Source: Bacteroidales bacterium
GTDB lineage: Bacteria > Bacteroidota > Bacteroidia > Bacteroidales > UBA7960
Reading direction: 5' to 3'
Length of the DNA: 64,000 bases
Assembly: GCA_007118495.1 (NCBI GenBank)
Contig: SKRM01000003.1
Location: 12,334-76,333, forward strand
Position numbers and translations under genes: made by a program. The notes beneath the pieces were generated by a model that saw only the letters and a program-made list of their open reading frames with translations, did not search any database and was not told the DNA's origin. Each line of letters begins with the position of its first letter. Position 1 is the first letter of the stretch. This document shows positions 40,068 to 62,228 of this stretch, piece by piece.

Positions 40068-40069
40068 AT

Positions 40070-40483
40070 TTAATCCTCCATAATTGAAAACATAACCAAC
40101 ATAAGCATTCCCGCCACGGTAAGGTAAACCCCAACATCGAACAGGAGAGGAGTGCCCAGCTTTAATTCAACTACCGTATGCTGAAACAAAGTGATCCACT
40201 CACCGGTCATGAATGGAGAACCGCTGAAAAGGGCTGGAACACCGCTTAAAAGGGCGATGAGCAACCCAAGGGCTGTCATAGTAACCGGACTGAATGATAT
40301 ACTTTTCTGGGTTTTGCTTACACCAAATGCCATGGCGTAAAGGATAAATGCAGCTCCAAGCATCAGGCCACCTATAAAACCGCCACCAGGTTCATTGTGT
40401 CCGCGGTATAAAACAACCAGTGACAATACAATCAGGATGGGTCGCATATGCCGGGCGGCGATTTGTAAAATAACTGACTCCAT
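40070..40483 (-). CDS. mrpB: Mrp-type antiporter subunit B
   Basis: 137 aa. YRGHNEPGGGFIGGL is the MnhB signature. Confidence 0.88.
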   Translation of the reverse strand: MESVILQIAARHMRPILIVLSLVVLYRGHNEPGGGFIGGLMLGAAFILYAMAFGVSKTQKSISFSPVTMTALGLLIALLSGVPALFSGSPFMTGEWITLFQHTVVELKLGTPLLFDVGVYLTVAGMLMLVMFSIMED

Positions 40484-40484
40484 A

Positions 40485-42791
40485 TCAGATCTCTTTTCGT
40501 TTAGATAACTTGATCATTGAAAAGATTCCCAGTGCAGCTATGGCTATTACACTGATCTCTCCCAATGTGTCCAGTGCCCTGAAATCTACCAGGATCACAT
40601 TTACCACATTTCTGCCAAATGCTTCACTGTAGCTTGCCTCTTTAAAAAACGACGAAATGGGTTCACTCATCTGGGTTGTGCCAGCCTGAAGCACCAAAAC
40701 CATCATAAAGGCACCCACCAGTGAGGCAACAAGTCCGTCGCGCATTCTGGCTCCGCTCTCAGAGTATTTTGCATATTTTGGCAGGTGATAAAGCACAGCC
40801 ATGGCCAAAATGACCATTAATACTTCAACCATTATCATGGTTATGGCCAGGTCAACGCCGCTGAAGGCAATAAATATGATGGATATTCCAAACCCGATCA
40901 CTCCCATGGCCACCAGAGCAATGACCCTTGAGTGTGAAATCACTGCCGACAAGGCTGCTGCAATAATTAGTACAACCACTGCCACAAGGTTCAGTGGCAT
41001 GTCTGCGAAGTTCAGTTCAAGTATGATGGGGTCAGCCCTCCAAATCATTACCCAGACCAGAACAGAAGCCACGGCAAAAACTGTCATCAGATAAAAACGG
41101 TGGTATCCATGCTGTATCCGGCTGGTTTGTTTTTTGGTAAAATGAAGAAATCCATCAACAGCAGCTACAAATCCGTTGGAGAACTCTCTGGCAAAATACC
41201 TCAGGTTAATACTGCCTGAATGTTCCAGAATCATGCGCTTATACCGGTACATGAAGTAACCCGTAAAAAGGGTCAAAGCACTTAAAAGAAGAACAAGATT
41301 GAATCCATGCCAGAGTTTCAGACCCACAGCAACATGACCCGGACTGACAGAGGTAATGGCCATGGCGGTAAGAGGTGCTGCAAGATTAGCCGGGAAAAGT
41401 CCCAGCAGTAAGCTAAGCAGCACAAGTACCACAGGTCCTGCCATGAGTGCTACATAGGGGTCAAAGGGCTTCTTTTGGTAATCGGATCTTTTCCCCCAGA
41501 AAACATCCAGTGATAGTCGCAGTGAGAGGAAGACAAGCACAGAATTGGTAAAAAAAGCGGCCAGTAAAATAAGGTAACGAGAAGTAGGGGCCAGGCTTGT
41601 GGCCTCATAGATGAGCTCTTTGCCAACAAACCCGAGCATGGGTGGTATTCCGGCCATTGAAACCAGAGCCAGTGACATAACAATGGCAGCCACAGGCATT
41701 TCTTTGAACAGGCCACCCAATTTGGTAATATCTCTGGTGCCTGTCATTTTTTCAATATTTCCGGCCATCATAAACAGGGTGCCCTTGTATAAGGCATGGA
41801 CCAGCAAAAATATGATGGCAGCATTTATTGCATATTGGGTGCCTGTTCCTATAAGCAGAACCAGGGTGCCAAGGGCGCTCACAGTGGTATATGCCAGTAT
41901 TTTTTTCAGGTCAGTCTGGGTAATACTGAACCAGGCTCCCATAACCATTGTGACTGTTCCAAATGTGGTAAGCAGGATATGCCAGATTTGGGTGTCGCCC
42001 ATAACCGGATTTAGTCGGGCAAGCAAGAATACACCCGCTTTAACCATAGTGGCCGAATGCAAGAATGCGCTGACAGGCGATGGTGCAGTCATGGCACCGG
42101 GTAGCCAAAAATGAAACGGAAACTGTGCAGATTTGGTAAAAGCTCCAAGCAGGATAAGTATCAGTGCAGGCAGATACAGGACACTTGAGCGGATGGGTTC
42201 AGGATCGGCCAGTATGGTAGATAGTTCATACGTACCATAGGGCAAGCCCAACAATACAAAACCACCCAGTAACGCCAGACCCCCAAAACCAGTAATCAGC
42301 AAGGCCTGAAGGGCGGCTGTCCTGGCTTCAGGTTTTTCATGATGGTAGCCAATGAGCAGGTATGAGCTGATACTGGTGAGCTCCCAGAAAACAAACATGG
42401 TGATCAGGTTCCCTGAAACCACAATTCCCAGCATGGCTGCCATGAATAATATGAGGTAGCCCATAAACCTGCCTTTCATGGGGTAGGGTACCATATACTT
42501 TCCTGCATATATCAAAATAAATGCCCCTATGCCCAAAATGAGGAGACTGAAAAGTATTCCAAATCCATCAATATAGAAAGATAGGTTGATATCATATACA
42601 GGAATCCATTTGTAGCTTTCTGTGATAACCTCACCTTTGAGAATAACAGGGAGTGCTCTTAAATAATATATGATACCAGCAACCGGCACAATGGCATACA
42701 GAGGGCCGGCCAGATTGTTTAAATATCTTCTTGTAAAGGGAGCCAGAAACGAAAGCAATAGCAGAAGACCTATTAACAAACCGGAATTCAT
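40485..42791 (-). CDS. mrpA: Mrp-type antiporter subunit A (NuoL-like plus MnhB-like C-terminal domain)
   Basis: 768 aa polytopic protein. WELTSISSYLLIGY, FHFWLPGAMTAPSPVSAFLHSATMVKAG. First gene of the mrpABCDEFG operon. Confidence 0.92.
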   Translation of the reverse strand: MNSGLLIGLLLLLSFLAPFTRRYLNNLAGPLYAIVPVAGIIYYLRALPVILKGEVITESYKWIPVYDINLSFYIDGFGILFSLLILGIGAFILIYAGKYMVPYPMKGRFMGYLILFMAAMLGIVVSGNLITMFVFWELTSISSYLLIGYHHEKPEARTAALQALLITGFGGLALLGGFVLLGLPYGTYELSTILADPEPIRSSVLYLPALILILLGAFTKSAQFPFHFWLPGAMTAPSPVSAFLHSATMVKAGVFLLARLNPVMGDTQIWHILLTTFGTVTMVMGAWFSITQTDLKKILAYTTVSALGTLVLLIGTGTQYAINAAIIFLLVHALYKGTLFMMAGNIEKMTGTRDITKLGGLFKEMPVAAIVMSLALVSMAGIPPMLGFVGKELIYEATSLAPTSRYLILLAAFFTNSVLVFLSLRLSLDVFWGKRSDYQKKPFDPYVALMAGPVVLVLLSLLLGLFPANLAAPLTAMAITSVSPGHVAVGLKLWHGFNLVLLLSALTLFTGYFMYRYKRMILEHSGSINLRYFAREFSNGFVAAVDGFLHFTKKQTSRIQHGYHRFYLMTVFAVASVLVWVMIWRADPIILELNFADMPLNLVAVVVLIIAAALSAVISHSRVIALVAMGVIGFGISIIFIAFSGVDLAITMIMVEVLMVILAMAVLYHLPKYAKYSESGARMRDGLVASLVGAFMMVLVLQAGTTQMSEPISSFFKEASYSEAFGRNVVNVILVDFRALDTLGEISVIAIAALGIFSMIKLSKRKEI

Positions 42792-44087: not shown

Positions 44088-47000
44088 TTATGTGTTTAAA
44101 AATGTATTCTTCCAATTGTCATCAAAGCGCTTAACAAGGTAATCGCATCCATGATCAAACATTTTTTTGTTGGCTTCATGGGTGGTATACGCCAGCCTGT
44201 AAAGACCTTTGCTCTGATTGCCTACAAATGAGGCCACTTCAAGCATGACATCAGCAGGACCTTCGTAGTCTGCCTTGATTCCAAGGCCAAACAGAAGTGC
44301 TTTAAGTTGGGTCAGTGAACTAAATTCAAGATTTGATTGACTTACCGGCTCAAATTGCTGAATGAATTTCTGGGTATTGGTAAAACTGCCGCCAATTTCT
44401 GTGTGCAATGATGCCGGAAGCACCAAGTCAGCCAATTGTGCTGTATCTGACATAAACAGATCTTGCACCACCAGAAACTCCGTTTTTTTCAGTGTATTTG
44501 TAACCATTTGTCCCTCCAGGGCACAACCTGCCGGATCTTCACAGAAAATAAAAGCATTTTTTATTTTACCTGCTGAAAGTAAGGCCCACTGATCTTGTTC
44601 AATATAGGCCTGCATTGTATCGAGGCCCCAAATCTCAGCCAGTTTTTCAACTACCTTTGGTTCAGACATCATATTTCCGCCAGGGGCTAAGGCTGCACAC
44701 GCACCCATGTCAAGTAACCCTTGTGCATTGTTTTTTTCCTTTAATGGAATAAGTCCACTGGCAGTTTTACCACTTTTACCGGTAATCATGCATAGGTTTC
44801 TGAGCTCTTGTGAGGTTTGCGCGCTTACATTTTTTTCAGAGAATATGAGGATTGCGTGTGGTTCCTGGTTGAATTCCCGGGCAAACCGGGCAATTTCTTC
44901 TTCACTGCATCCAGCTTCATTTAACAAATGACCAAAGTCTTCAGAGAGCACTTTTTCGCGGTATGTTTCAAATGCATCGCAATGATCATCAATAAATACC
45001 ATGTTCTCCATTTTATTTGAAAGGACGTAATGGAGTACTGCTTTAACAAAATAATACCCTGACAACATTTGAACCACCCTGGTGGCCTTTTGCTTCATGC
45101 TGTTGTTATTCTTGCTGGTAATAAGCTCAAAGGGAGTGCCCTGGTTAAAATGGGTGTTGAAGGCTTCGTATCCCGGAACACCATGTTCGTAATTGATCTC
45201 TGAATCGAATATGTATATTCTGCCCGCTTTACTTATTTGTGTCAGGGGTACCGAAAACTGGCTGTTCAGAAAATAGCCTCCTCCACGGCCCATATAATGG
45301 AAACTGCTTACCTGGTTTGTTTTGACACCAGCCCGTGCAAGTTTCTGGATCAGGTACATTTCTTCATTGGTCAACCTGGCGCCAATGTAAAACCCGTTTT
45401 CAGCCGGCTGTACACTACTGATTTTTTCCAGTATGGTTTCAAAGGCCTCTTTAAAGGATATTTCAACAAATTTTCCGTCAATTTTTTTCAATGGTTTGGT
45501 GATGCGGCTTTTATCATTCAGGTAATGATATCCGAATTTGGCATAACGGCAAATGTTTCCGTTTTTATTAATCAGCCCTTTGCTGCCCGTTGTCCTTGAT
45601 ACGAACCCGCCCTTATGGTGAAGCTCTATCTGACACCCCACTGAACAATAATTACAAATGGTGGTCATCACATCGGTTGGTACAGGCATGGTCTTGAAAG
45701 GCACATTCTCTGTCAGGGCCCCCGTTGGGCAAGTATCAATACATAGTCCGCATGATTCACATTGGGTATCCTGCAGCCGACCATCCATTGATGGAGCTAT
45801 GTGGGTATCAAAGCCTCTGTTTACAAGACCCAGGGCGTTTGCACCGTTAACCTCTGAACAAATCCTGATGCAGCGCGAACAAAGGATACACTTATTGTTG
45901 TCAATTTCAATAAACGGATGTCCAAAATCAACCTGGTATTTGCGATATTCGCCTCCAAACCGCCTTTGTTCTGCCTTATACTGGCTGGCATACTTTTTCA
46001 GGTCGCATGTATGAAGTTCTGAGCAACCACATTCAAGACAGCGCCTGGTTTCTTCAATGGCTGCCTGTTGTCTGTAACCCAGTTCTACTTCATTGAAATT
46101 ATCCCTTGCCTGGGGATCAAGTGTGGGCATCTCTTCACGGATTTGCTCTTTGAAATGTCCGTGGTATTCTTCGCTGACCTGCTTTTCAAAATGGTCTTTT
46201 TTGCTTAAAAATTCTTTTACAGGGGGGGTGATCTCCTCATTGCGCAGCCATTTGCTGCAGCTGTTTGCTGCCAGCCTTCCCTGGGCTATGGCCTCGATCA
46301 GTGTGGCCGGGCCTGTTACGCCGTCACCACAGGCAAATACATTGTCAATGGAGGTCTGCAATGTATTTGTATCTGCATCTATATCTCCCCATTTGTTAAG
46401 TTTCAGCTCTCTGCCTGCATGCTCAGATATATTATCGATGAAATCTACTACGGTTTTCTGTCCGATGGCGGCAAGGATAAAATCTAATTTGACATCAAAC
46501 TCTGATCCTTCTATTTTCACAGGCCTTCTGCGGCCTGACGCGTCGGGCTCCCCAAGCTCCATCCGTATACAACTCAGCGATTCAAGGTTGCCGTTTTTGT
46601 CTTTGTTTACCCTGGCCGGGGCAGTGAGAAACATGTAGTTGATCCCTTCGAGTTTTGATTCGTGAATTTCAATGGGATTGGCAGGCATTTCCTTTTCGGT
46701 TCTCCTGTAAATAACTGTAACATCTTCAGCACCACATCGTTTTGCTGTCCTGCAGCAGTCCATGGCAGTGTTTCCACCACCTATAACGGCAACTTTTTTA
46801 CCTGTGAAGTCATATTTCTGACCAGTCATTTCCATGTTGCGGAGAAAATCAATCCCCGAAAAGATATTTCCGGCATCATCATTTTCACAACCTATACCTG
46901 TTCCTTTCTGAGAACCAATGGCCAATATGCTGGCATCATATTTATTCTTTAGTTCAGCGTAGTTGAGGTTATCACCCAGTTTTTTCCCATAATGGATGTT

Positions 47001-47777
47001 GACACCAAGACCTGTTATCCCTTCAATTTCTTTTTCAATCACCTCATTGGGAAGGCGGTAGGGGGGAATCCCGTACCTGAGCATTCCACCAGCATGTGGA
47101 CTTGCTTCAAATATATCCACATGGTGTCCATCAATTGCCAGGTAGTATGCAGCAGTTAAACCGCCGGGGCCGGCACCTATCACCGCTACTTTTTTTCCCG
47201 AGGCAGGTTTAACAACAGGCATATAGCGGTTGTCTGAAAACATATCAATATCTGAGGTATACCGTTTAAGGTAGTCAATACCCACGCCGATATCTTCAAG
47301 TAAATTTCGGCGACAAACAAGTTCACACGGCCGCACACATACCCTGCCGCAAATGGCTGGCAAGGGATTGGTTTGCTTGATCAATTCAACCGCTTCTCTG
47401 TGTTTACCCTTGCTGATCATGGATATATATCCCTGAACATCAACCCCTGCAGGACATTCTTCACGGCATGGAGGGGCACAGTCGGCATAATGGTTGCTGA
47501 CCAATAGTTCAAGGCTGAATTTTCTTGACCTGTGCACCCGGTCATTATCTGTTTCAATGCGCATCCCTTCAGTAATTCTGGTAGAACAGGCCGGCTGCAA
47601 ACCGCGCATACCTTCTACCTCAACTACACATAAATAGCAAGACGAAAACGGTTCAAGCCTGTCGTCATGACATAGTGTGGGAATTTCTATGTCCAGTCTC
47701 CGGGCCATTTCTAAAATGGTTTCACCCTTGATACCCTGTACTATTTTACCGTTAATGATGATATTGAGTTTACCCAT
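44088..47777 (-). CDS. NuoG/HydA-N-like FeS subunit fused to a GltD-like NAD(P)H flavoenzyme and a MopB-like domain (BfuA/NfnA-like)
   Basis: 1229 aa with four parts. (1) aa 1-80: plant-type 2Fe-2S, C36/C47/C50/C64. (2) aa ~95-510: GltD-like, with CAPPCREECP, CGRVCVRPCELVC, VAVIGAGPGG, GGMLRYGIPPYRLP, VIGGGNTAMD. (3) aa ~575-695: FeS clusters CLECGCSELHTC, CILCSRCIRIC, CESCGLCIDTCP. (4) aa 705-1229: CNYCSVGCQ..C plus a molybdopterin-oxidoreductase-like fold. Confidence 0.8.
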   Translation of the reverse strand: MGKLNIIINGKIVQGIKGETILEMARRLDIEIPTLCHDDRLEPFSSCYLCVVEVEGMRGLQPACSTRITEGMRIETDNDRVHRSRKFSLELLVSNHYADCAPPCREECPAGVDVQGYISMISKGKHREAVELIKQTNPLPAICGRVCVRPCELVCRRNLLEDIGVGIDYLKRYTSDIDMFSDNRYMPVVKPASGKKVAVIGAGPGGLTAAYYLAIDGHHVDIFEASPHAGGMLRYGIPPYRLPNEVIEKEIEGITGLGVNIHYGKKLGDNLNYAELKNKYDASILAIGSQKGTGIGCENDDAGNIFSGIDFLRNMEMTGQKYDFTGKKVAVIGGGNTAMDCCRTAKRCGAEDVTVIYRRTEKEMPANPIEIHESKLEGINYMFLTAPARVNKDKNGNLESLSCIRMELGEPDASGRRRPVKIEGSEFDVKLDFILAAIGQKTVVDFIDNISEHAGRELKLNKWGDIDADTNTLQTSIDNVFACGDGVTGPATLIEAIAQGRLAANSCSKWLRNEEITPPVKEFLSKKDHFEKQVSEEYHGHFKEQIREEMPTLDPQARDNFNEVELGYRQQAAIEETRRCLECGCSELHTCDLKKYASQYKAEQRRFGGEYRKYQVDFGHPFIEIDNNKCILCSRCIRICSEVNGANALGLVNRGFDTHIAPSMDGRLQDTQCESCGLCIDTCPTGALTENVPFKTMPVPTDVMTTICNYCSVGCQIELHHKGGFVSRTTGSKGLINKNGNICRYAKFGYHYLNDKSRITKPLKKIDGKFVEISFKEAFETILEKISSVQPAENGFYIGARLTNEEMYLIQKLARAGVKTNQVSSFHYMGRGGGYFLNSQFSVPLTQISKAGRIYIFDSEINYEHGVPGYEAFNTHFNQGTPFELITSKNNNSMKQKATRVVQMLSGYYFVKAVLHYVLSNKMENMVFIDDHCDAFETYREKVLSEDFGHLLNEAGCSEEEIARFAREFNQEPHAILIFSEKNVSAQTSQELRNLCMITGKSGKTASGLIPLKEKNNAQGLLDMGACAALAPGGNMMSEPKVVEKLAEIWGLDTMQAYIEQDQWALLSAGKIKNAFIFCEDPAGCALEGQMVTNTLKKTEFLVVQDLFMSDTAQLADLVLPASLHTEIGGSFTNTQKFIQQFEPVSQSNLEFSSLTQLKALLFGLGIKADYEGPADVMLEVASFVGNQSKGLYRLAYTTHEANKKMFDHGCDYLVKRFDDNWKNTFLNT

Positions 47778-47811
47778 GATTTCAAGTTGGAGTTGATTGA
47801 TTTTTTAATGA

Positions 47812-49590
47812 TCAGCTGATGGCTATGGCTTCAAATTTACACCTGGTAAGACAAACACCACATTGAATGCATAGCTCCTGGTCAATGTGATGCACCTGCT
47901 TTCTTTGTCCGGTAATGGCATCTACAGGGCAACCCTTGATACAAGCCATACATCCGGTGCATTTTTCTTCTGCGACAGTGTAGGTGAGTAATTTTTTGCA
48001 ACTTAGTGCGGGACATTTCTTATCGCGGATATGAGCTTCATACTCATCACGGAAATACTTAATGGTGGTAAGAACTGGATTGGGAGCAGTTTGCCCCAGT
48101 CCACAAAGTGAACTGTCTTTGATGGTTTCAGCAATCTCTTCAAGCAACTCAATATCGCCCTCTTTGCCTTCGCCCCCGGTAATCCGGGTAAGTGTCTCGA
48201 GCATACGTTTGGTTCCTATCCGGCAGAATGTGCATTTGCCACATGACTCCTTCTGTGTGAAATCAAGAAAAAATCTGGCGATGTCTACAACACAGGTTGT
48301 TTCATCCATGACCACCATACCTCCCGAACCCATGATGGCCCCGGTAGCGTTTACAGAATCATAATCAACCAGGGTATGTGAAAGGTGCTCGGGAATGCAA
48401 CCCCCTGAAGGACCTCCCAGCTGAACCGCCTTAAACCTTTTATTGTCAGTGATACCACCTCCAAGATTATAAATTATATCCTTGATGCTGATACCCATAG
48501 GAACTTCTACGAGTCCGCCGTGCCTGATTTTTCCTGTCAGGGCAAAAACCTTTGTTCCCTTTGATTTTTCTGTGCCATAACTGGCATATTTTTCGGGTCC
48601 ATGGTAAATGATCCATGGAATATTGATAAAAGTTTCGACGTTGTTTATATTGGTTGGATGTTTCCAGAGCCCTGCCTCGGCCGGAAACGGAGGCCGTCGC
48701 CTTGGCATGCCCCTGGCTCCCTCAATGGAGGCAATCAGGGCTGTTTCTTCGCCACAAACAAATGCTCCGGCGCCTTCTTTGATCTGCACATCAAAATCAA
48801 ATCCGCTGATCCCAAAAAGATTTTTACCGAGGTAACCTTTTTCTCTTGCCTGTACAATGGCCAGATTCAGACGTTTGATAGCCAGGGGATATTCTGCCCT
48901 GCAGTATATATATCCCGCATTGGCACCAATGGCATAGCCACAGATGATCATGCCTTCAAGCACGCCATGTGGATCGCCTTCAAGAATGGATCTGTCCATA
49001 AATGCGCCGGGATCACCTTCGTCGGCATTGCATATGACATATTTTTGCTCTGATTGATGATTTCGCGCAAACCTCCATTTCATGCCGGTAAGAAAGCCAC
49101 CGCCACCACGTCCTCTGATGCCCGAATCCAATACAGATTGAATAACCTGGTCGGGACTGATATTCTGGCCTGCAATTTTCCTGATGGCCTTGTAACCATC
49201 ACGTGCTTCATATTCACCAATTGACTCGGGGTCAATATGACCACAGTTTCTCAAACTTATCTTTACCTGACCTTCAAAAAACTGTGCATCAGCAGATACT
49301 ATTTTGTCAGATTGTACGATATACTCAGGAATCGGGGTGAATTTCCTTATATGTTTGTCAATGATTTCATCCACCCTCGGGATATCCACTTCGCCATACA
49401 TATAGGTTCCGGTATCATCTATAATCTCAACCAAAGGTTCCTTGTAGCACATGCCGATACAACTGGTTTTCTTGAGTTCAATATCCAGTTTGTCTGATTC
49501 GATAATGCGTTGGAACTCTTTGTATGTTTTGTTGGCTCCTGCAGCTATCCCACAACTTCCCAGGCCTACGATTACCTTTGTTTGTCCCAT
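47812..49590 (-). CDS. NuoF/HydB/HndC-like FMN- and NAD(H)-binding FeS subunit (BfuB-like)
   Basis: 592 aa. N-terminal thioredoxin-like 2Fe-2S region (GSCGIAAG..CIGMC). GRGGGGFLTGMKW FMN/NADH site. CGKCTFCRIG 4Fe-4S. C-terminal 2x[4Fe-4S] (CTGCMACIKGCP, CIQCGVCLTRC). Confidence 0.9.
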   Translation of the reverse strand: MGQTKVIVGLGSCGIAAGANKTYKEFQRIIESDKLDIELKKTSCIGMCYKEPLVEIIDDTGTYMYGEVDIPRVDEIIDKHIRKFTPIPEYIVQSDKIVSADAQFFEGQVKISLRNCGHIDPESIGEYEARDGYKAIRKIAGQNISPDQVIQSVLDSGIRGRGGGGFLTGMKWRFARNHQSEQKYVICNADEGDPGAFMDRSILEGDPHGVLEGMIICGYAIGANAGYIYCRAEYPLAIKRLNLAIVQAREKGYLGKNLFGISGFDFDVQIKEGAGAFVCGEETALIASIEGARGMPRRRPPFPAEAGLWKHPTNINNVETFINIPWIIYHGPEKYASYGTEKSKGTKVFALTGKIRHGGLVEVPMGISIKDIIYNLGGGITDNKRFKAVQLGGPSGGCIPEHLSHTLVDYDSVNATGAIMGSGGMVVMDETTCVVDIARFFLDFTQKESCGKCTFCRIGTKRMLETLTRITGGEGKEGDIELLEEIAETIKDSSLCGLGQTAPNPVLTTIKYFRDEYEAHIRDKKCPALSCKKLLTYTVAEEKCTGCMACIKGCPVDAITGQRKQVHHIDQELCIQCGVCLTRCKFEAIAIS

Positions 49591-49610
49591 GGTAATTATA
49601 TCTTTTGGTA

Positions 49611-50132
49611 TTAATTGATTTCGCTTCTGCGTATTTCTTTGATGATCTTTACAGCTTCCTTTGGCGTTAATTTCCCATAGGTTTCTTCTCCGATCATCAT
49701 TACGGGCGCCAGTGAGCAGCAGCCCAGGCAGGCTACTGTTTCAACAGTAAATAGCCGGTCAGAGGTGGTTTCACCGTCTTTGATCTGCAGCATATCAAGT
49801 ATTTCATCGGTAATAGCTGTTACACTCTGAACATGACAGGCTGTCCCATGGCACATTTTTACAATGTGTTTTCCGGCGGGTGCCAGCCTGAATTGCGCAT
49901 AAAATGTAGCTACTCCGTACATTTCATTCAGTTCAAGACCTGTTTCTTCATGGATGCGGTAAAAGGCCGCACGGGGAAGAAATCCATATATATCCTGTGT
50001 GCCCTGCAACAAGGGTATAAGGTTCCCTTTTTTTGTTTTGTATTTTGCAATGAGTCCATCCATCAGGCTTAGATCAACCTGAATCTCGGGTGTTTCATTT
50101 ATTTGCCGGGGCTTGATTCTTTCAATGCGCAT
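49611..50132 (-). CDS. NuoE/HydC/HndA-like 2Fe-2S subunit (BfuC-like)
   Basis: 173 aa. MCHGTACHV and CLGCCSLAPVMMI provide the four cluster cysteines. Confidence 0.9.
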   Translation of the reverse strand: MRIERIKPRQINETPEIQVDLSLMDGLIAKYKTKKGNLIPLLQGTQDIYGFLPRAAFYRIHEETGLELNEMYGVATFYAQFRLAPAGKHIVKMCHGTACHVQSVTAITDEILDMLQIKDGETTSDRLFTVETVACLGCCSLAPVMMIGEETYGKLTPKEAVKIIKEIRRSEIN

Positions 50133-50377: not shown

Positions 50378-51715
50378 TTAGATTACGCCCTGGTCAATCA
50401 TGGCATCGGCTACCTTTATAAAGCCTGCAATGTTTGCTCCTTTAACGTAGTTTATGTATCCATCCTCTTCTGTACCATGTTTCTTGCAAGCTTCATGAAT
50501 GTTCTTCATGATCTGGTGCAGTTTTTCCTCAACTTCTTCAGCTGTCCAGTTGAGTTTCATGGCATTTTGGGTCTGCTCAAGACCTGATGTGGCTACACCA
50601 CCTGCATTGGCAGCTTTGCCGGGGCCGTATAGTACCTTGGCTTCCTGAAGAATTTCAACTGCTTCAGGCGTACAGGGCATATTGGCTCCTTCTGAAATCG
50701 CCATGACGCCATTATTCACCAGGTTTTTGGCGTCTTCTACATCAAGCTCATTCTGGATGGCGCAGGGCATGGCTATGTCGCACTTGACTTCCCACGGACG
50801 CTTGCCTTCAAAGAATTGTGCATTGGGGAATTCATAGGTATATGGCTTTACAATATCCTGGTTTGAGGCACGAAGTTCGAGCAGATAGTCGATCTTATCG
50901 CCAGAAATTCCATCCGGATCATATACATAACCATCAGGACCACTAATGGTAACTACTTTTGCACCCAGCTGGGTTGCCTTGCTGGCAGCACCCCATGATA
51001 CGTTACCGAATCCTGAAATAGCTACGGTTTTACCCTGAAGCTTCTCACCACGGGTTTTGAGCATTTCTTCTGCAAAGTATACAGCTCCGTATCCGGTAGC
51101 CTCAGGACGGATCAGGCTGCCGCCCCAGTTACGTCCCTTGCCTGTGAATGTGCCGGTATGCTCGCCTGTAAGCTTTTTGTACATACCAAACATATAACCA
51201 ATTTCACGGCCACCAACTCCAATGTCTCCTGCCGGAATATCGGTGTCTGGTCCGATGTATTTATACAGCTCAGCCATGAATGCCTGGCAGAAACGCATAA
51301 TTTCAGACTGGGACTTGCCTTTTGGGTCAAAGTCAGATCCGCCTTTTGCACCACCCATTGGAAGTGTGGTCAGGCTGTTTTTGAAAATCTGCTCAAAACC
51401 AAGGAATTTCAGTCCGCTGAGGGTAACACTTGGGTGGAAGCGACAACCGCCTTTATAAGGCCCGATAGCATTGTTAAATTGCACACGGTAACCTCTGTTT
51501 ACATGCACATTGCCTTTGTCATCAACCCATTGAACTTTGAAGGAAATCACCCTATCGGGCTCAGTTATTCTTTCAATAATGTTAGCAGCCTGATATTTTG
51601 GGTTTTCAGCAACCACGTCAATGATGGTTTCAAGAACTTCCCTTGCTGCTTGCAAAAACTCTTTTTCGCCCGGATTCTTGCGTTCCAGGTCAGCCATTAT
51701 TTTTTCTAAATTCAT
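50378..51715 (-). CDS. gdh: Hexameric glutamate dehydrogenase, Clostridium symbiosum / Bacteroides GdhB-like dinucleotide fingerprint (probably NAD(H)-preferring)
   Basis: 445 aa. [15 protein letters not shown] catalytic Lys region. Rossmann turn ISGFGNVSWGAA followed by TISGPDGYVYDPDG, which I recall from the NAD-specific C. symbiosum enzyme. Confidence 0.9.
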   Translation of the reverse strand: MNLEKIMADLERKNPGEKEFLQAAREVLETIIDVVAENPKYQAANIIERITEPDRVISFKVQWVDDKGNVHVNRGYRVQFNNAIGPYKGGCRFHPSVTLSGLKFLGFEQIFKNSLTTLPMGGAKGGSDFDPKGKSQSEIMRFCQAFMAELYKYIGPDTDIPAGDIGVGGREIGYMFGMYKKLTGEHTGTFTGKGRNWGGSLIRPEATGYGAVYFAEEMLKTRGEKLQGKTVAISGFGNVSWGAASKATQLGAKVVTISGPDGYVYDPDGISGDKIDYLLELRASNQDIVKPYTYEFPNAQFFEGKRPWEVKCDIAMPCAIQNELDVEDAKNLVNNGVMAISEGANMPCTPEAVEILQEAKVLYGPGKAANAGGVATSGLEQTQNAMKLNWTAEEVEEKLHQIMKNIHEACKKHGTEEDGYINYVKGANIAGFIKVADAMIDQGVI

Positions 51716-51821: not shown

Positions 51822-54800
51822 TTATTTTTCAGGTTTTAATACAATTCCTGTCTTTTTACTGCCGTCAATTTTGATCACTGCCGGACAGTTAAAACCAACA
51901 TGTCTGATATAGTCATCTTCAAAGGCTGCATCTTGCTCTTCAAGATATGAAGTGTCATAATAACCATCTTTAACGTAAGGGTTTATGGTAAAATATCCTA
52001 CATGAAAAGAGGTGAGGTTCTGGAAAAAGTGTGTACCCTGGCTCGGATCAATGTGATAGTCTTTCAGACTTGACTCAACAATCAGCCTGGCGGCCGAGAT
52101 CTGCGCCCATTTTACAGGTATGCCCAACCATGGATCATTGGAGCCCCAGCGTCCGGGTCCGATAAGAATGTAATTCTTGCCTTCTTTGGCAAGCATGGCA
52201 TTCAACTTGTTAATAGTCAATGCCATTTCTTTGGTTTTGGCCGGATCGAAAGCTCGGGGTTTTACGTAAACTATATCCCTGATGTTGTCAATTATTCCAT
52301 TGCCCAGTGCATTTCTGCTTATTATTATTGACTCACTGGGTTTGCAGATATTGACCCTGACCCTGTTCTTCTCTTGTGTTGCAACAACAGGTCTGATCTG
52401 GAGAAAATGAAACTGCCTATTCTCTCCTTTGGGAACATCAAGGTTAACCGCAAATTCAATTTCTACCTGGTTGTTCATCTCCTGCTGCCCGGTTTGCAAA
52501 AGTTTTTGCACAATTTCGGCAAGCGGAAAAGATTGGTGTTTTATGACATTGGCAAAAGTAATGATCCTGGTGCCAGTCTCGTATATTCCATCTCTGATGA
52601 TCTGGTCTTCATAATCATAGGTTGATGCCACGAATTTCAGAGCCGACTCACCTTTTATATTTCTTATTTTTATATGGTGTAAATTGATGGTTTCATCCAC
52701 AGCTGGTTGAAACTTTTCCGGATCAAGGTTCAGGCTATAGAACTCTTTTTGGCTGTCACGAAGGGCAATATCAGTGTTTGCCAGTTGCAGTGCCTTTTGA
52801 GGATATCGTGGACAGAAGCGAAGCGACATTCCCCCATCCATGATGGTTTTACCCAAACCAAATGCAATATTGGCGATACCATCTTCATATTTTTCAGGAT
52901 CAATTGGATAGAAATTCACCGACCTGGCCACGCCCGATATGGTAGGATAAAACATATTACCGTACGACCTTCCTGAAATCTCCTGGATCACCACAGCCAT
53001 TTTTTCCTCATCAATTACATTTGAAGTAGCCTCGATATATGACTTACTTTCCTGATAAAATACTGAAGCATATACACTTTTTATTGCCTGTTCAAGCTGC
53101 TGAATCCTTACATTGAGATCATGGTGGTTGTTGGGAATCATGTATGTCGAGTATACTCCTGCAAAAGGCTGATAGTGACTATCCTCAAGAAGACTTGAAG
53201 AGCGGACTGCCAGAGGCGATTTGAAAAATTCAACGATTTCCTTTGCATATGATTTCATTCTTGACGGTGTTCTGGCATAGATGAATTTTTCAAGAACGTC
53301 CTTGTCATTCAGCTGGGCAAGTGCCACCGAATACATATCGTTTTCTTCCATGAACTCATCAAAAATATCGGTGGTCAAAACCACGGTTCTGGGCACAGAA
53401 ACAGTCACACCATCCCAGCGATACATAATTTTATGCTTATTGATTACAGAGTCAATGAAGGCTAACCCCCGGGCTTTTCCGCCAAGCTGACCATCTCCAA
53501 GCCTGGTGAATACGGCATACTCATCAAGGTGGCTGGCAATGATGCCCCGCCCTTTGGTTCTTCTGTAATTGGCAATGGTGTCAATAAGGTAGTTTCGGAT
53601 TTCTTCAATATTATTGAAGTCATCGCGGCTTTTCTGTGCAAAAACATTGGCGATTGAAAACAATGCCCTGGCTTTCAGCCACCTTGAAAAATGATTGTTA
53701 GATACATGATATTCCAATACCTTGGGTTCAGCCTTGGAGATTTTTACCTGCAATGAATGCAGATTATTTGCCCGGCCTGACTCAATCCCGGTTGACGGAT
53801 CCTTAAATACAAAATCTCCAAAGCCGTAGTTTTCTTTGATATAGTGCTTAAGCTCAATGAGAAGGGTGTTGGAATATTTGTCGATAAAACTGACATCAAT
53901 ATCTTTGTTGATTGTTGCGTCCCATTTTTCAGATGACTGCAGCAGGATAGGGATATTCGGGTTTTTTTTCCGCACATGTTTGGCCAGCTTTACCCCGGCC
54001 TGGTCATCACGCTCTCCTTCTCTGGTATAACTAATGTCTGAAATAATTCCCAGCAGGTTGTCCTTGTATTTTTTATATAATTCAACGGCTTCTTCATAGG
54101 TTTTGGCCAGCAGTATTTTTGGCCTGGCACGCATTCGGAGCGTTTTGCGGTGTTCATTCAGGCCCTCAGTCATCAGTTCATTGGTCTGGTCAAAAATAAC
54201 CTTGTAAATGGTGGGCAGGTAAGATGAATAATACCGAATAGAGTCTTCAACAAGCAAGATGCCCTGTACACCGATCTTCTCAATATCAAAATCAGCATTC
54301 ATTCTGTCTTCAAGCAGTTTGATGATTGCCAGAAGCAGCCCTGCATTGCCAAGCCAGCTGAATACGTAGTCAATGGAGCTGAGGTCTTCGTTACGCAACT
54401 TAATGGAGACCTCTCTTGAGAAATGGGTAAGTACTACAATGGGAATGCCCGGATGTTTCTTTTTAACTTTTTTAGCCATTTCGAAACAATCAATCTTTCC
54501 GACATTGAGCATGGTAATCACCAGATCAAAATCTTTTTCCTTCATCAGATTGAAGGCCTCTTCTGATGAACTGGCTTTGGTAAACTGGGGCGGATACCTT
54601 AGGTTTTTTGATGTGTACTCCAGAAATATTTTCTCATTGATCCGGCCATCTTCTTCAAGCATAAACGCATCGTAATTACTGCAAATGAGCAACACATTGA
54701 TGATGCGCTTTTGCATAAGGTCTTCATATGATATCTCCTTAAACTCGTATGTATCGGTCGCGTAGCTATCGTCGTATTTATATTTTGAGTATTCTTTCAT
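51822..54800 (-). CDS. Pseudo-receiver + receiver + PEP-synthase/PPDK-type ATP-grasp + swivel-like C-terminal domain protein (paralog B)
   Basis: 992 aa.
- Pseudo-receiver, aa ~33-170: FDLVITMLN, with Met at the acceptor position.
- Receiver, aa ~178-310: ILLVEDS, IISD(255)IS, LLQSS, FIDK.
- PPDK_N motifs: GGKARGLAF, AVRSSSLLEDSHYQPFAG, MAVVIQE, ISGVARSVNFYP, EIEFAV, FLQIRP.
- C-terminus: ILIGPGRWG, GIPVKW, SQGTH(924)FFQN.
- No PEP/pyruvate TIM barrel. Confidence 0.75.
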   Translation of the reverse strand: MKEYSKYKYDDSYATDTYEFKEISYEDLMQKRIINVLLICSNYDAFMLEEDGRINEKIFLEYTSKNLRYPPQFTKASSSEEAFNLMKEKDFDLVITMLNVGKIDCFEMAKKVKKKHPGIPIVVLTHFSREVSIKLRNEDLSSIDYVFSWLGNAGLLLAIIKLLEDRMNADFDIEKIGVQGILLVEDSIRYYSSYLPTIYKVIFDQTNELMTEGLNEHRKTLRMRARPKILLAKTYEEAVELYKKYKDNLLGIISDISYTREGERDDQAGVKLAKHVRKKNPNIPILLQSSEKWDATINKDIDVSFIDKYSNTLLIELKHYIKENYGFGDFVFKDPSTGIESGRANNLHSLQVKISKAEPKVLEYHVSNNHFSRWLKARALFSIANVFAQKSRDDFNNIEEIRNYLIDTIANYRRTKGRGIIASHLDEYAVFTRLGDGQLGGKARGLAFIDSVINKHKIMYRWDGVTVSVPRTVVLTTDIFDEFMEENDMYSVALAQLNDKDVLEKFIYARTPSRMKSYAKEIVEFFKSPLAVRSSSLLEDSHYQPFAGVYSTYMIPNNHHDLNVRIQQLEQAIKSVYASVFYQESKSYIEATSNVIDEEKMAVVIQEISGRSYGNMFYPTISGVARSVNFYPIDPEKYEDGIANIAFGLGKTIMDGGMSLRFCPRYPQKALQLANTDIALRDSQKEFYSLNLDPEKFQPAVDETINLHHIKIRNIKGESALKFVASTYDYEDQIIRDGIYETGTRIITFANVIKHQSFPLAEIVQKLLQTGQQEMNNQVEIEFAVNLDVPKGENRQFHFLQIRPVVATQEKNRVRVNICKPSESIIISRNALGNGIIDNIRDIVYVKPRAFDPAKTKEMALTINKLNAMLAKEGKNYILIGPGRWGSNDPWLGIPVKWAQISAARLIVESSLKDYHIDPSQGTHFFQNLTSFHVGYFTINPYVKDGYYDTSYLEEQDAAFEDDYIRHVGFNCPAVIKIDGSKKTGIVLKPEK

Positions 54801-57800
54801 GCTTTTGGTTGGGTGGTTAGGTCAAAGTAGATCAGTGATGCGCGTTTTTTCCCATCCATAACTACTTCAAGCGGATTGTCAAATCGCACGTGCTTCAGGT
54901 ACCTGGTTTCATTAATTAAATTTGCACCCTGAAGCACTTCCCAGTTGATATAGTCTATAAGGTCATTGTGTCTTACTGAGAAATAACCCACATTCATTGA
55001 TATGACATTGTGGAAAAAATGGGAGCCAAGAGAAGCATCAAGCGGAAAATCTTCCATGCTCATCTCAACAATTATTTTTGCATTTGATATCTGCGACCAG
55101 TTAACCGGTATGCCGATAAAACGATCACGGGTTCCCCACCGACCTGGGCCTATGAGGATGTATTTACGGTTTTCGGCCGACATGATTGAATTGATCTTGT
55201 CAATTTCATCTCTTATCTTTTCGGTTTTCAGCTTATCGAAACAGTCAAGGTCGACATATACCACATCATAAATATCATTTATCCGGCCATTCCCCATGCC
55301 ATTTTCGCAATAGAGCAGTAACCTGTCATTATCAATTTTGTCAATATTGATTTCGGTTTCGATAATGTTTTTTATGAGTGGTTTGATCTGAAGCAGGTAA
55401 AACGATGCATGTCCTTCTTTGTTTTTTTCCAGGTCAACCGCGAACTCCATTTCAATAGGTGTCCCCATTGACTCAGAAATAATGTCAAGCAATACTTCAA
55501 TGGTTTTGGCAAGAGGGATATAATCGTATTTAAGAATATTGGCAAAATTAACTACCCTGGGGCCGGGATCAGTGATTCCGGGGATTAATCGTTCACTTGT
55601 AATATCGTATACCGAAGCACAATGTTTAAGGGTTCCGTGTTTTTCTGACTGTTCAATCTCAAGTTTTATAAGGCCTGCTTCTTCACCCTCCATAAGATCA
55701 AGATTATGCTTGCCCATGTCTACGGCATAAAAATGCACCTGAGAGTTTTTAAAAAGCTCTTTGGGTGTATACATTTCAAGCTGGGGATGAACAGGAGAAA
55801 AACGATAGGTTTTTTCGCCTTCAACCACATATTTTCCCAATCCGACAGCAACAGAGGCGAAGCCTTCGTCAGGCTTCATGTATGAATATGGATAAAAATT
55901 GTAAGACTGTGCAACCCCGCTGATATGCGGATAATAATTTCCATTATAATGATGCCCTACAACCTCTTGAATGATCACGGCCATCTTTTCTTCTTCAATT
56001 TTATAATTGACAGCCTTAAAGTATGCGGTGGCTGTGGGTGAAAATATGGATGCAAATACAAGCTTTATGGCTGTCATTACCTGCTCAAGCCTGACATTGA
56101 TATCGGGATGGTTGTTGGGCAACAAAAAGGTATCGAAAATACCGGCAAAAGGTTGCATGAGGGAGTCTTCAAACAGGCTCGAAGAACGTATGGCCAGAGG
56201 CCTTTCAATAATTGACAAATAGGCTTTTAACCTTTTTCGCAAGGTTGGAGTCAGGCTGCCTGCCGCAAATAACTCTTTTATCTTTTCGTAATCGGTTTCA
56301 CCGTAAATCTTATTGTAAAGGTTGTTGTTTTCAACAAAGCGCTCAAATTCTTCGGTTCCGATAATGGAAGTTCTCGGGGTGCATATACTGATATCAGGAA
56401 CCAGTTCACTAAAATCAAAACTATTGATGATCATATTGATGAAAGCCAACCCCCGGCCTTTCCCTCCCAATGACCCTGGTGAAAGACTCACCACATTGGT
56501 TTTGTCCATCAGGGCAGATTCTTCATAGTTAATCACCCGGCCCTTTTGTTTATCATGAATGCATTGTTCTATTACATCAATAAGGTAGTCTCTGAGACTG
56601 CCTGAAGATTTGAAGTCTTCAACTTTAAGTGGTTTGATACGGCGGGCTATCTGAATCTCACCCCTGGCCATCAACCAATGTGAAAAATGGTCTTTCTTCG
56701 CGTGGTAGATCAGCGATTTTTCAGGGATGGTTTTCAGATGTGTCTGGAATTCTTTCATAGATCTGGCTACGGCAATATCCCGCCGTCCTTCGTCGTCTTT
56801 GTAGATAAAATGACCAAAGCCCAGATAATAATTAATAAAACTTTGCAAATCCTGTTTTAAAGTATCAGAATTCTTGTTGATGAATGTTGACTTCAACTTG
56901 TATGCTTCAGTGGCATTTTCCGGATCAGATGACTGAAGCACCGTGGGTAGGTTGGGCGCGTTATTTTTGGCATATTCAACAAGCTTGAGCCCAGCCTTTG
57001 CATCCATCTCACCGTCTTTCTCGAACTTAACATCAGATATCAGACAAAGAAGATTGTCTCTGTACTTATTAAATAGCGTTACAGCTTCATTGTAGTTTGA
57101 GGCCAGCAAAACCTTTGGCCTTACACGCATTTTCAGAAGTTTGTATAGTTCGTCTGTATTTACCTCTTCGATCAGTTGCTGGGTTTGTTCTATAACGATT
57201 GAGTAGAGGATGGGGAGGTAACGTGAGTAATATTTTGCAGAATCTTCAACCAGCAAGATAACCTGAACCATACCAATCCGGATATCACTCTCTACATTCA
57301 TCCGGTCTTCATTGTATTTAACCATGGCCAGAAAGACCTTACTGTCGCCATTCCAGACAAAGACCTTGTCAATAGAGGTAATGGGTTTGTTCCCGTCTTC
57401 AAATAAGGCGATATCACTGTTGTTGTTGAGCAACATGAAAATGGGGATGCTGTGGTAAATCTGTTTGATAATGCGGCTCAGCTGAATGGGTGTTGACTTT
57501 TCAACCCCCATCATGACGATAACCAGATCAAAATGTTTTTCCTGCAGCTTTTCAAGTGCTTCTTCAGGGGTTGACACCCCGGTAATACGTGGGGCTGAAG
57601 ACAGGTTTAACTGGTAATATTCACCCGTAACCTGTTCAAAAAAACGTCCTTCCTGCTCAATGATATAGGCATCATACAAATTGGCCACCAGGAGTATCTC
57701 TCTGACTTTGTATTGCATCAGGTCATGGTAAATATCCCTGTCAGAATTATGCTTATTAAGAAATTTTTGCAAGAGTTGACGACTCATTGCCGAATGGGCA

Positions 57801-58351
57801 CGTTCTTGCTTAAGCACCTCACTGTCTTTGGTTTGGGAGGCAGCTTTTTTGAGATATTCTTTCCCTATCTGTGTATTCAGATGCCCGGTTATCAGGCTGC
57901 TCAGGTTGTTGATCAGGTGACGTTCTTCTATGAAAAAAGGACCTTCATCAACTTCAGGAAACTCTTTTTCGTAAAACACCTCAATACATCCTTCTTTACC
58001 ATCAATGGTTTCAAACGTTTTCCGTTGAACCCATTTGGTTTCTTTCATGCCCTGCTTGCTTTTAAACTGCATATCCCCGTACTTAATGCGGGCTGTTGTG
58101 TGTTCGGGATGTTGCCATGCGGGGGGAATGATCTCTGCGATCTTTTGCAGCATTTCAGGGATGGGCTTCTCTTCTTTCAGAATGTTGGTGGTCTGATGGA
58201 TGGCACCAAGCTCCTTAAGCCTTTCCTGTTTTTCTGCCAGCAATTGCCTGATCTCTTCATGACTGATGGTTAATTGAATATCCTTATCAGAATCAAAAGA
58301 CAGGCCTTCTTTCAGGAGTTCTGATTTAATTTTCTGCAAGTTTTTTCCCAT
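54797..58351 (-). CDS. Sensor-like N-module + pseudo-receiver + receiver + PEP-synthase/PPDK-type ATP-grasp + swivel-like C-terminal domain protein (paralog A)
   Basis: 1184 aa.
- N-module, aa ~60-157: IIPPAWQHPE..GCIEVFYEKEFPEVDEGPFFIEERHLINNL.
- Pseudo-receiver, aa ~215-350: FDLVIVMMG.
- Receiver, aa ~362-495: ILLVEDS, LISD(440)V, VLQSS, FINK.
- PPDK_N motifs: GGKGRGLAF, AIRSSSLFEDSLMQPFAG, MAVIIQE, ISGVAQSYNFYP, EMEFAV, LLQIKP.
- C-terminus: ILIGPGRWG, GIPVNW, SLGSH(1111)FFHN.
- Its stop overlaps the paralog B start in ATGA. Confidence 0.75.
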   Translation of the reverse strand: MGKNLQKIKSELLKEGLSFDSDKDIQLTISHEEIRQLLAEKQERLKELGAIHQTTNILKEEKPIPEMLQKIAEIIPPAWQHPEHTTARIKYGDMQFKSKQGMKETKWVQRKTFETIDGKEGCIEVFYEKEFPEVDEGPFFIEERHLINNLSSLITGHLNTQIGKEYLKKAASQTKDSEVLKQERAHSAMSRQLLQKFLNKHNSDRDIYHDLMQYKVREILLVANLYDAYIIEQEGRFFEQVTGEYYQLNLSSAPRITGVSTPEEALEKLQEKHFDLVIVMMGVEKSTPIQLSRIIKQIYHSIPIFMLLNNNSDIALFEDGNKPITSIDKVFVWNGDSKVFLAMVKYNEDRMNVESDIRIGMVQVILLVEDSAKYYSRYLPILYSIVIEQTQQLIEEVNTDELYKLLKMRVRPKVLLASNYNEAVTLFNKYRDNLLCLISDVKFEKDGEMDAKAGLKLVEYAKNNAPNLPTVLQSSDPENATEAYKLKSTFINKNSDTLKQDLQSFINYYLGFGHFIYKDDEGRRDIAVARSMKEFQTHLKTIPEKSLIYHAKKDHFSHWLMARGEIQIARRIKPLKVEDFKSSGSLRDYLIDVIEQCIHDKQKGRVINYEESALMDKTNVVSLSPGSLGGKGRGLAFINMIINSFDFSELVPDISICTPRTSIIGTEEFERFVENNNLYNKIYGETDYEKIKELFAAGSLTPTLRKRLKAYLSIIERPLAIRSSSLFEDSLMQPFAGIFDTFLLPNNHPDINVRLEQVMTAIKLVFASIFSPTATAYFKAVNYKIEEEKMAVIIQEVVGHHYNGNYYPHISGVAQSYNFYPYSYMKPDEGFASVAVGLGKYVVEGEKTYRFSPVHPQLEMYTPKELFKNSQVHFYAVDMGKHNLDLMEGEEAGLIKLEIEQSEKHGTLKHCASVYDITSERLIPGITDPGPRVVNFANILKYDYIPLAKTIEVLLDIISESMGTPIEMEFAVDLEKNKEGHASFYLLQIKPLIKNIIETEINIDKIDNDRLLLYCENGMGNGRINDIYDVVYVDLDCFDKLKTEKIRDEIDKINSIMSAENRKYILIGPGRWGTRDRFIGIPVNWSQISNAKIIVEMSMEDFPLDASLGSHFFHNVISMNVGYFSVRHNDLIDYINWEVLQGANLINETRYLKHVRFDNPLEVVMDGKKRASLIYFDLTTQPKA

Positions 58352-60875: not shown

Positions 60876-62228
<1,353 letters not shown>

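Follow-up and report, generated by a model that had tools for sequence, protein, structure and literature searches.

What does a conserved histidine do at the end of a protein that carries a dikinase-type ATP-binding domain and no recognisable phosphohistidine domain? The question is raised by two adjacent genes in a 64,000-nucleotide stretch of a Bacteroidales bacterium genome (assembly GCA_007118495.1, contig SKRM01000003.1, forward-strand positions 12,334 to 76,333; hereafter the window, to whose numbering all coordinates refer). Their products, paralogs A and B, each end in a domain of about 180 residues, here called the tail, which follows a PPDK_N ATP-grasp domain. A preliminary description made from the sequence alone had likened this tail to the mobile phosphohistidine (swivel) domain of phosphoenolpyruvate (PEP)-utilizing enzymes, PF00391. 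We interpret A and B as paired response-regulator-type proteins whose core is a PPDK/PEPS/Rph-type ATP-grasp with a tethered ~180-residue C-terminal domain, the His of which would serve as a phosphocarrier; we give this explanation about an even chance. The genes and the domains on which the argument turns are as follows.

54797..58351, minus strand: paralog A, 1184 amino acids (open reading frame list and Pfam), comprising in order a probable N-terminal sensor-like domain (residues 1-207), the receiver domains REC1 and REC2, a DUF5752-like linker, the PPDK_N ATP-grasp and the conserved-His tail
51822..54800, minus strand: paralog B, 992 amino acids (open reading frame list and Pfam), comprising in order REC1, REC2, a DUF5752-like linker, the PPDK_N ATP-grasp and the conserved-His tail
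55367..56473, minus strand: PPDK_N ATP-grasp of A, residues 627-995 (Pfam E = 4.7e-40, 138 bits)
52359..53489, minus strand: PPDK_N ATP-grasp of B, residues 438-814 (Pfam E = 1.2e-37, 130 bits)
54800..55351, minus strand: tail domain of A, residues 1001-1184
51825..52370, minus strand: tail domain of B, residues 811-992

The two paralogs share 38% identity over 970 residues. In both, Pfam recognised the PPDK_N ATP-grasp strongly, a receiver weakly and a DUF5752-like stretch at a borderline level, with no match for the last ~185 residues. The ATP-grasp motifs are intact in A (GGKGRG, RSSS, EMEFAV and, at residues 987-991, LQIKP) as in B (GGKARG, RSSS, EIEFAV and, at 800-804, LQIRP), and their cores (GGK, RSS, E.EF, LQ.[RK]) are invariant or nearly so in 137 homologues. 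Membership of PF01326 (PPDK_N), for which the Pfam gathering cutoff is 27 bits, is borne out by hidden Markov model (HMM) matches above that cutoff together with intact ATP/Mg residues; the NCBIfam models for PEP synthase (PEPS), PPDK, Rph and PigC match the ATP-grasp only, with scores far under their cutoffs. Catalytic motifs preserved in this way suggest that the domain would bind MgATP.

PPDK, PEPS, GWD, Rph and PigC all proceed through a phosphohistidine intermediate, and we know of no characterised enzyme of the PF01326 (PPDK_N) clade that does otherwise. By analogy with these enzymes, a (pyro)phosphoryl group would be passed from ATP to the near-invariant His of the G[ST]HFF motif in the tail. 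Neither A nor B contains a detectable PF00391 domain or the PEP-utilizers_C acceptor domain (Pfam, NCBIfam), nor the PEP/pyruvate-binding TIM barrel (PF02896) of classical PPDK and PEP synthase (Pfam), and the earlier proposal that the usual acceptor domain has been lost or replaced is thereby upheld.

The tail itself is defined by a run of motifs shared between the paralogs, of which two are listed here.

55013..55027, minus strand: GSHFF motif of A, with the His1111 codon at 55019..55021 (CAT)
52023..52037, minus strand: GTHFF motif of B, with the His924 codon at 52029..52031 (CAC)
55133..55150, minus strand: GPGRWG loop of A (residues 1068-1073)
52143..52160, minus strand: GPGRWG loop of B (residues 881-886)

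The first motif, of the type G.GNG.I.(D/N)I.D(V/I)VYV, reads GMGNGRINDIYDVVYV at residues 1018-1033 of A; in B it begins ALGNG, with Ala in place of the leading Gly. It is followed by (K/N)YILIGPGRWG..D...GIPV.W.QIS.A..IVE (A 1063-1096, B 876-909) and by D.S.G[ST]HFF[HQ]N (A 1105-1115, B 918-928). Apart from the Ala in B, motifs, both His codons and the extents of the two domains are thus exactly as the preliminary description had them.

Conservation of the tail is far beyond chance. The G.HFF motif is kept in 348 of 349 near-complete homologous tail domains, so that the conservation of the His anticipated for G[ST]HFF extends across the family. In a non-redundant set of 187 sequences (70% identity cut-off), identity reaches 95% or more at 19 positions: G1020, N1054, L1066, G1068, G1070, R1071, W1072, G1073, G1080, P1082, W1085, E1096, S1107, G1109, H1111, F1112, F1113, N1115 and Y1123. 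Within the GPGRWG loop R1071 is invariant, and G1068, G1070, W1072 and G1073 are 98-99% identical; D1076, whose identity rounds to 0.95, falls in the 85-95% band. The polar set R1071, E1096, S1107, N1115 and Y1123, with D1076 close to 95%, may form an acceptor site. The sole His-less member among the 349 is P0345, an A-type protein of 1158 residues in which the His is replaced by Leu. It is also devoid of the GPGRWG loop, and its ATP-grasp is decayed (GGK to NER, RSS to RAV, and the Q of LQxRP to N); the protein is probably a pseudo-enzyme partner. Because tail motif and ATP site have decayed together in this protein, the tail His and the ATP site are suggested to belong to one catalytic apparatus.

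This joint decay also bears on the idea that the tail has no catalytic role and serves regulation or oligomerisation, for instance A-B pairing or metabolite sensing. The paralogs lie in tandem and are translationally coupled, the stop codon of A overlapping the ATG of B as ATGA (54797..54800, same strand), and short (REC-less) and long paralogs occur naturally fused in single proteins of 1500-1650 residues (P0252, P0268 and P0273). On account of this coupling and these fusions a heteromer of A and B is likely, and the overlap and the fusions suggest that it is obligate. Both features would suit a regulatory tail, but its conserved His, Arg, Glu, Ser, Asn and Tyr and its glycine loops look like an active site, and the tail motif decayed along with the ATP site in P0345; we consider a purely regulatory role very unlikely.

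Whether the tail is homologous to the swivel domain is a separate matter, and here the sequence searches were negative. The tail has no match in Pfam, NCBIfam or a PDB sequence search; PF00391 failed to match A or B at E <= 1, or any of 100 tail-family members even at E <= 10 (Pfam). For profile-profile comparison, seven PDB-verified swivel-domain sequences were aligned and 120 database homologues then added. Against PF00391 profiles of 5 PDB sequences, 7 sequences and 127 sequences, hhalign assigned the tail probabilities of 1.4%, 0.2% and 0.8%, respectively, and the comparison that the preliminary description had put forward as a check stayed below 1.5% in every run. The sole local signal paired 'wLGIP' with 'RELGIP', in a register different from the one originally proposed by eye. 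Deletion of four putative insertions made the by-eye register (His-His, W-W, IVE-IVT, DG-DG) the best hhalign path, at a probability of 0.4% and P = 0.15, a rescue without significance. HMMER offered a third, sub-threshold register, in which LGIPV.W.QIS.A..IVE is set against the first (N-terminal) hairpin of the Rph swivel domain. With three mutually inconsistent weak registers, the by-eye resemblance is, as judged from these alignments, not unique. The GG of the canonical G-G-x-T-[SC]-H and its Thr at -2 are absent, the tail motif being [LQ]G[ST]HFF, in which the His is preceded by Ser or Thr. Homology of the tail to PF00391 is not demonstrable: the resemblance is compatible with homology, but neither significant nor unique.

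Structure prediction supported a swivel-like order of elements, and the model of the isolated tail had no significant match in the PDB. An AlphaFold2 (AF2) model of A 986-1184, built on a 100-sequence alignment, reached pLDDT 85 and pTM 0.84, with pLDDT below 50 over the first 13 residues, which form the linker; the tail follows the ATP-grasp, as first described, after this low-confidence linker (Pfam, AF2). The elements run beta, beta, long alpha, beta, short alpha, beta, alpha (His), beta, alpha, beta, beta, beta, and helix 125-133 (model numbering) has the tail His at its N-terminus, with Ser/Thr just before this residue. We take this strand and helix order to be that of the swivel domain as known from Enzyme I (EI) and PPDK, the long helix presumably being located where EI has its helical insertion. 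Searched against the PDB with Foldseek, the isolated tail gave no match at E <= 0.001; the top matches were unrelated alpha/beta proteins, no PPDK, EI, PEPS or Rph entry appeared among the top 50, and the structural comparison proposed at the outset did not show homology. The best TM score on the query (TMq) was 0.36, to LdcA, whose C-terminal domain SCOP places among the swivelling beta/beta/alpha folds. Of the originally claimed swivel-like order, the collinearity of elements thus stands and homology is not shown.

The tail may nevertheless be an extremely diverged homologue of the swivel domain that is not detectable as a PF00391 member. A stronger version, compatible with the phosphocarrier explanation, makes it a true PEP-utilizer swivel domain enlarged at three or four places: a long helix would have been inserted behind the first hairpin, the GPGRWG..D...G loop would be an addition, and both the His loop and the pre-C-terminal segment would be extended. 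It draws on the collinear secondary structure, on equal spacings in the two domains from W to IV[TE] (+9) and from His to the next strand (+10), on the 'v.vDG..G.v' hairpin that ends both, on the exact return of the by-eye register once insertions are removed, on PPDK Foldseek alignments that run collinearly through the tail, and on LdcA being among the top weak matches of the isolated domain. The His domain of GWD, too, is poorly recognised by PF00391 or escapes it. The hhalign values on intact and insertion-free profiles, the empty Pfam search of 100 members, the isolated-tail Foldseek result and the two other registers that score as weakly all speak against it, as does the occurrence of a beta-alpha-beta order in many other alpha/beta folds; we regard this version as possible but doubtful.

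Evidence on where the tail sits came from an AF2 model of the ATP-grasp and tail of B together (residues 425-992, 568 residues; 137-sequence alignment; pLDDT 92, pTM 0.89), in which the predicted arrangement of the two domains is confident. Foldseek matched this model to Rph (5hv1, E = 1.8e-14), PPDK (1kbl, E = 1.1e-8) and also HpeI (9goj). Matches confined to the ATP-grasp covered ~380-420 columns and most PPDK chains 650-700 columns; because the query has only 568 residues, the tail must be within the PPDK alignments, and the column counts would place it on the PPDK segment that ends near residue 500-600, namely the linker and central domain. The quality of the fit depended on the state of the PPDK structure, with states assigned from PMC5371819 and PMC5556012. 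Structures in state I, with the central domain turned towards the nucleotide site (1dik, 1kbl, 1ggo, 2dik), gave a root-mean-square deviation (rmsd) of 10.2-12.2 A and TMq 0.34-0.42; those facing the PEP/pyruvate-binding domain (2r82, 1vbg, 1vbh, 5jvj_A, 5jvl_C) gave 16.5-18.3 A and 0.25-0.28, and the intermediate-state 5jvn gave 15.6 A and 0.26. The fit thus varies with where the central domain is located. On the ATP-grasp, the modelled tail appears to occupy the place that the central domain of PPDK takes up in the nucleotide-facing state, which suggests the ATP-loading position of the PPDK His domain. The tail His would then sit docked over the ATP site during loading. Of the preliminary claim that this His is a phospho-carrier, its near-invariance and its place at a helix N-terminus after Ser/Thr are retained and a detectable swivel homology is not; the tail is probably analogous in function to the phosphohistidine swivel domain.

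Several points weigh against a phosphocarrier. Nothing in the sequence or fold results links the tail with a phosphohistidine domain already known, and the co-degeneration of His and ATP site is seen in a single protein, P0345. The placement of the tail is read from Foldseek summary numbers (columns, rmsd, TM), not from a visible alignment or coordinates, and the comparison of fit by state is confounded by the open or closed form of the PPDK nucleotide-binding domain. The high pTM of the model could mean a rigid rather than a mobile tail. Literature searches (DUF5752, PF01326 with response regulator, and broader terms) returned no characterisation or biochemistry of the family. Finally, invariant polar residues are far more numerous in the tail than in canonical carrier domains, and for this reason a substrate-binding or catalytic lid would also fit.

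Such a lid is the main rival to the carrier. The tail would be fixed over the ATP-grasp cleft, phosphate transfer or acyl-phosphate formation would occur directly on a bound substrate, and the His would act as general base or ligand together with R1071, D1076, E1096, S1107, N1115 and Y1123. The many invariant or nearly invariant polar residues, and the pTM of 0.89, which suggests a fixed interface, fit a lid as well as a carrier. A lid also accords with the lack of a detectable swivel fold (Foldseek) and of a separate acceptor domain in A or B (Pfam, NCBIfam), and for most ATP-grasp enzymes that do not belong to the PPDK_N clade, carboxylates are the direct substrates. The ATP-grasp of A and B is, however, specifically of the PPDK_N/Rph type, in which characterised members to our knowledge use phospho-His; the His has the position seen in established carriers, at the N-terminal end of a helix and just behind Ser/Thr, and the linker to the tail is predicted to be flexible. 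On balance we hold the lid to be somewhat unlikely.

Comparison with known systems places the phosphocarrier explanation more precisely. Like the swivel domain of PPDK, PEP synthase and Enzyme I of the PEP-dependent phosphotransferase system, the tail is associated with a PPDK_N ATP-grasp, which it follows; it shares with that domain the conserved His at a helix N-terminus after Ser/Thr, the collinear order of strands and helices, the DG-containing end hairpin and a modelled position resembling the nucleotide-facing state of the PPDK central domain. It differs from PF00391 in giving no HMM, profile-profile or isolated-domain fold match, in its motif ([LQ]G[ST]HFF versus GGxT[SC]H), and in its length of ~180 rather than ~100 residues, with an invariant GPGRWG..D loop and invariant E, S, N and Y; in the by-eye register the GPGRWG loop is an insertion relative to the swivel domain. 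It is, moreover, C-terminal and held by one tether only, with no PEP/pyruvate TIM-barrel partner. We file it outside PF00391 because it has neither an HMM match nor profile-profile similarity to that family, and classify A and B as dikinase-like response regulators with an uncatalogued conserved-His domain.

The closest relatives of the ATP-grasp are Rph (5HV1, 5FBS) and the PigC/RedH-type ligases (Foldseek E = 1.8e-14; partial NCBIfam matches), which, like A and B, have their His domain at the extreme C-terminus and no PEP-binding TIM barrel, and whose dikinase chemistry A and B would share. In Rph, a 440-residue substrate-binding domain separates the ATP-grasp from a canonical PF00391 swivel domain, whereas in A and B the tail comes directly after the ATP-grasp, is not PF00391, and is preceded by N-terminal REC and DUF5752-like modules. 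The dikinase GWD of plants and algae has no built-in catalytic acceptor domain, and its phospho-His gives the phosphate to an external substrate. Its His domain precedes the ATP-grasp and it bears carbohydrate-binding modules, and in this reversed order and these modules it differs from A and B. By analogy, A and B would work most like Rph or GWD, as dikinases without a PEP-binding barrel, and the phospho-His would hand its phosphate to an acceptor outside the protein.

The preliminary description had instead named the receiver Asp of the same polypeptide as the obvious candidate acceptor, which directs attention to the receiver domains.

56807..57730, minus strand: REC1 and REC2 of A
53811..54728, minus strand: REC1 and REC2 of B
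57512..57529, minus strand: REC1 acceptor region of A, DLVIVM (residues 275-280), aspartate-less
54510..54527, minus strand: REC1 acceptor region of B, DLVITM (residues 92-97), with Met at the acceptor position

Across the family the REC1 acceptor position is Met in 77 of 112 sequences and never Asp, and by these residues REC1 is an aspartate-less pseudo-receiver. REC2 alone has the residues expected of a receiver (PF00072): LLVEDS (366-371), acceptor Asp440 in LCLISD, LQSS (472-475) and K493 in A, and E185/D186, D255 (in LGIISD), S289 and K308 in B. Family-wide these are well kept (E in 105/112, D in 99/112, the acceptor D in 103/113, S in 108/113 and K in 111/115), although Pfam does not recognise REC2, it has no PDB sequence match, and it carries a ~35-residue insertion after the first strand. 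The only publication on receiver domains combined with dikinases to emerge from our literature searches, a census of aspartate-less receivers (Maule et al. 2015, PMC4395418), found PPDK effector domains to be highly associated with such receivers. The architecture reported there resembles ours in joining a PPDK effector to an aspartate-less receiver, as REC1 is here, and that census gives no function, no tail domain or His, no second, Asp-containing receiver and no linkage to glutamate dehydrogenase (GDH).

A self-contained His-Asp relay, in which the ATP-grasp loads the tail His and the His then phosphorylates the in-cis REC2 Asp (D440 of A, D255 of B), has in its favour that the receiver catalytic residues of REC2 are all present in about 90% of members, and that no histidine kinase gene adjoins the pair among the genes annotated between 36 and 64 kb of the window. 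Some loci also have a LuxR-type response regulator after the A-type gene, which makes a receiver acceptor in trans conceivable. At least 15 cluster representatives, however, are complete ATP-grasp plus tail proteins without REC that keep GGK, GPGRWG and G[ST]HFF. The REC-less short forms retain every tail motif, as does a REC-less long form with an NTP_transf_2 domain; REC1 is aspartate-less throughout; and since orphan response regulators are common, the lack of a kinase gene nearby means little. Given that the tail is complete in REC-less forms, the in-cis Asp is unlikely to be an obligatory acceptor, the original suggestion is disfavoured, and the relay as a whole seems to us highly improbable. 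On its residues, the simplest reading of REC2 is as an ordinary input domain, a switch that would be fed by a histidine kinase.

Under the phosphocarrier explanation the acceptor would be external, and the genes around the pair suggest that A and B act on the glutamate/2-oxoglutarate node. Two GDH genes flank the pair.

50378..51715, minus strand: GDH1 (Pfam ELFV_dehydrog, E = 3.9e-91), in the same orientation as B and 106 bp downstream of it
60888..62228, plus strand: GDH2, on the other side of the A-B pair, 62% identical to GDH1

From their fingerprints we take GDH1 to be of the NAD type (GFGNV...SGPDG) and GDH2 of the NADP type (GSGNV...SDSNG). No terminator-like site was seen between B and GDH1, the sigma-70 and terminator scan of that region being otherwise uninformative. 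Among 80 species-representative loci, a GDH gene lies within 10 kb at 37, in at least two phyla, making GDH by far the commonest neighbour family; a random gene would be expected as a neighbour at roughly 1%. The link is one of neighbourhood, about half of the loci having no GDH within 10 kb, and this too tells against the proposed acceptor. Flanking by two GDH genes recurs in the Bacteroidota loci L002 and L089, and in the Victivallales loci L087 and L088 a large Bac_GDH lies on one side and a 445-residue GDH on the other, an arrangement also found in L001. In L090 a GDH gene is followed by a REC-less short and long pair, forming a GDH-short-long operon, and the long protein (L090:6567-9764, plus strand) has a C-terminal NTP_transf_2 domain directly after the conserved-His tail.

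The acceptor could accordingly be a component of this node, and the system could be one of covalent control over one or both flanking GDH isoenzymes. In its most specific form, a protein-modifying dikinase under REC2 control would phosphorylate the flanking GDH or GDHs via a phosphohistidine domain of undescribed fold, a proposal we rate as improbable. If it were true, covalent modification would let bacteria switch between breaking down glutamate and assimilating ammonium. The tight cross-phylum linkage to paired GDHs bears on the question of how bacteria with catabolic and assimilatory GDHs avoid a futile cycle. The tail, which belongs to no Pfam family and for which no structural relative was found, would, if its His is a phosphocarrier, represent a new carrier module for dikinase chemistry and a rare enzymatic output class for two-component signalling. 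Should the His instead be a catalytic lid residue, A and B would contain the first PPDK_N-type ATP-grasp without a swivel carrier, which would also be new.

The family is large. The tail alone retrieves 941 proteins; with full-length B the number exceeds 8000 (clusters at 90% identity). When 1.84 billion cluster representatives were searched with a profile, 2392 clusters (50% identity) matched at E <= 0.001. The family ranges over Bacteroidota, Lentisphaerota and other phyla. Databases label its members only as 'PEP/pyruvate-binding domain protein' or 'response regulator'. Two apparent stand-alone tail proteins on long contigs, P0051 and P0038, were rejected as pieces of frameshifted full-length genes. 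In the long-read metagenome assemblies L085 and L086, the A-type gene is broken by frameshifts into three to four overlapping open reading frames, and such frameshifted genes account for the spurious stand-alone tails in databases.

At its N-terminus, A carries a further domain of its own.

57731..58351, minus strand: N-terminal extension of A, residues 1-207, without a Pfam match

By its sequence this is probably a small sensor-like domain. The REC-less long paralog of L090 opens (L090:6567-7100) with what appears by eye to be the same domain, reading IIPWGWQYPEFAQVKIQY where A has IIPPAWQHPEHTTARIKY. A region of the NTP_transf_2 (Pol-beta-type nucleotidyltransferase) family also follows the tail in P0268 (residues 1554-1594), and long paralogs with this ending are reminiscent of nucleotidylyl-transferring nitrogen regulators.

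A candidate A-B pair between gdhA and gdhB of B. thetaiotaomicron, BT1971/BT1972, was rejected, BT1971 being a catalase. A reversible inactivation of Bacteroides GDH, for which no report turned up in the literature library searched, forms no part of the evidence. A LuxR/GerE-type response regulator directly follows the A-type gene in L072, L085, L086 and about 20 other loci, which lack a B paralog and often have GDH next; this regulator could be a partner or target of the A-type protein. Other recurrent neighbours, mostly recognised by eye, are 2-oxoacid:ferredoxin oxidoreductase subunits, GltD-like, NfnA-like and NuoE-/NuoF-like proteins, glutamate racemase and the LuxR-type regulator itself. 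In the window, the following genes lie beyond GDH1, and NuoE/NuoF-like and GltD-like genes recur beside homologues elsewhere too.

44088..50132, minus strand: NuoE-like 2Fe-2S protein, NuoF-like FMN/FeS protein and a 1229-residue fusion of a GltD-like pyridine-nucleotide oxidoreductase with a molybdopterin-oxidoreductase module, downstream of GDH1
38245..42791, minus strand: two Mrp/Mbh-type antiporter-like subunit genes (Proton_antipo_M, MbhD, MbhE), further downstream

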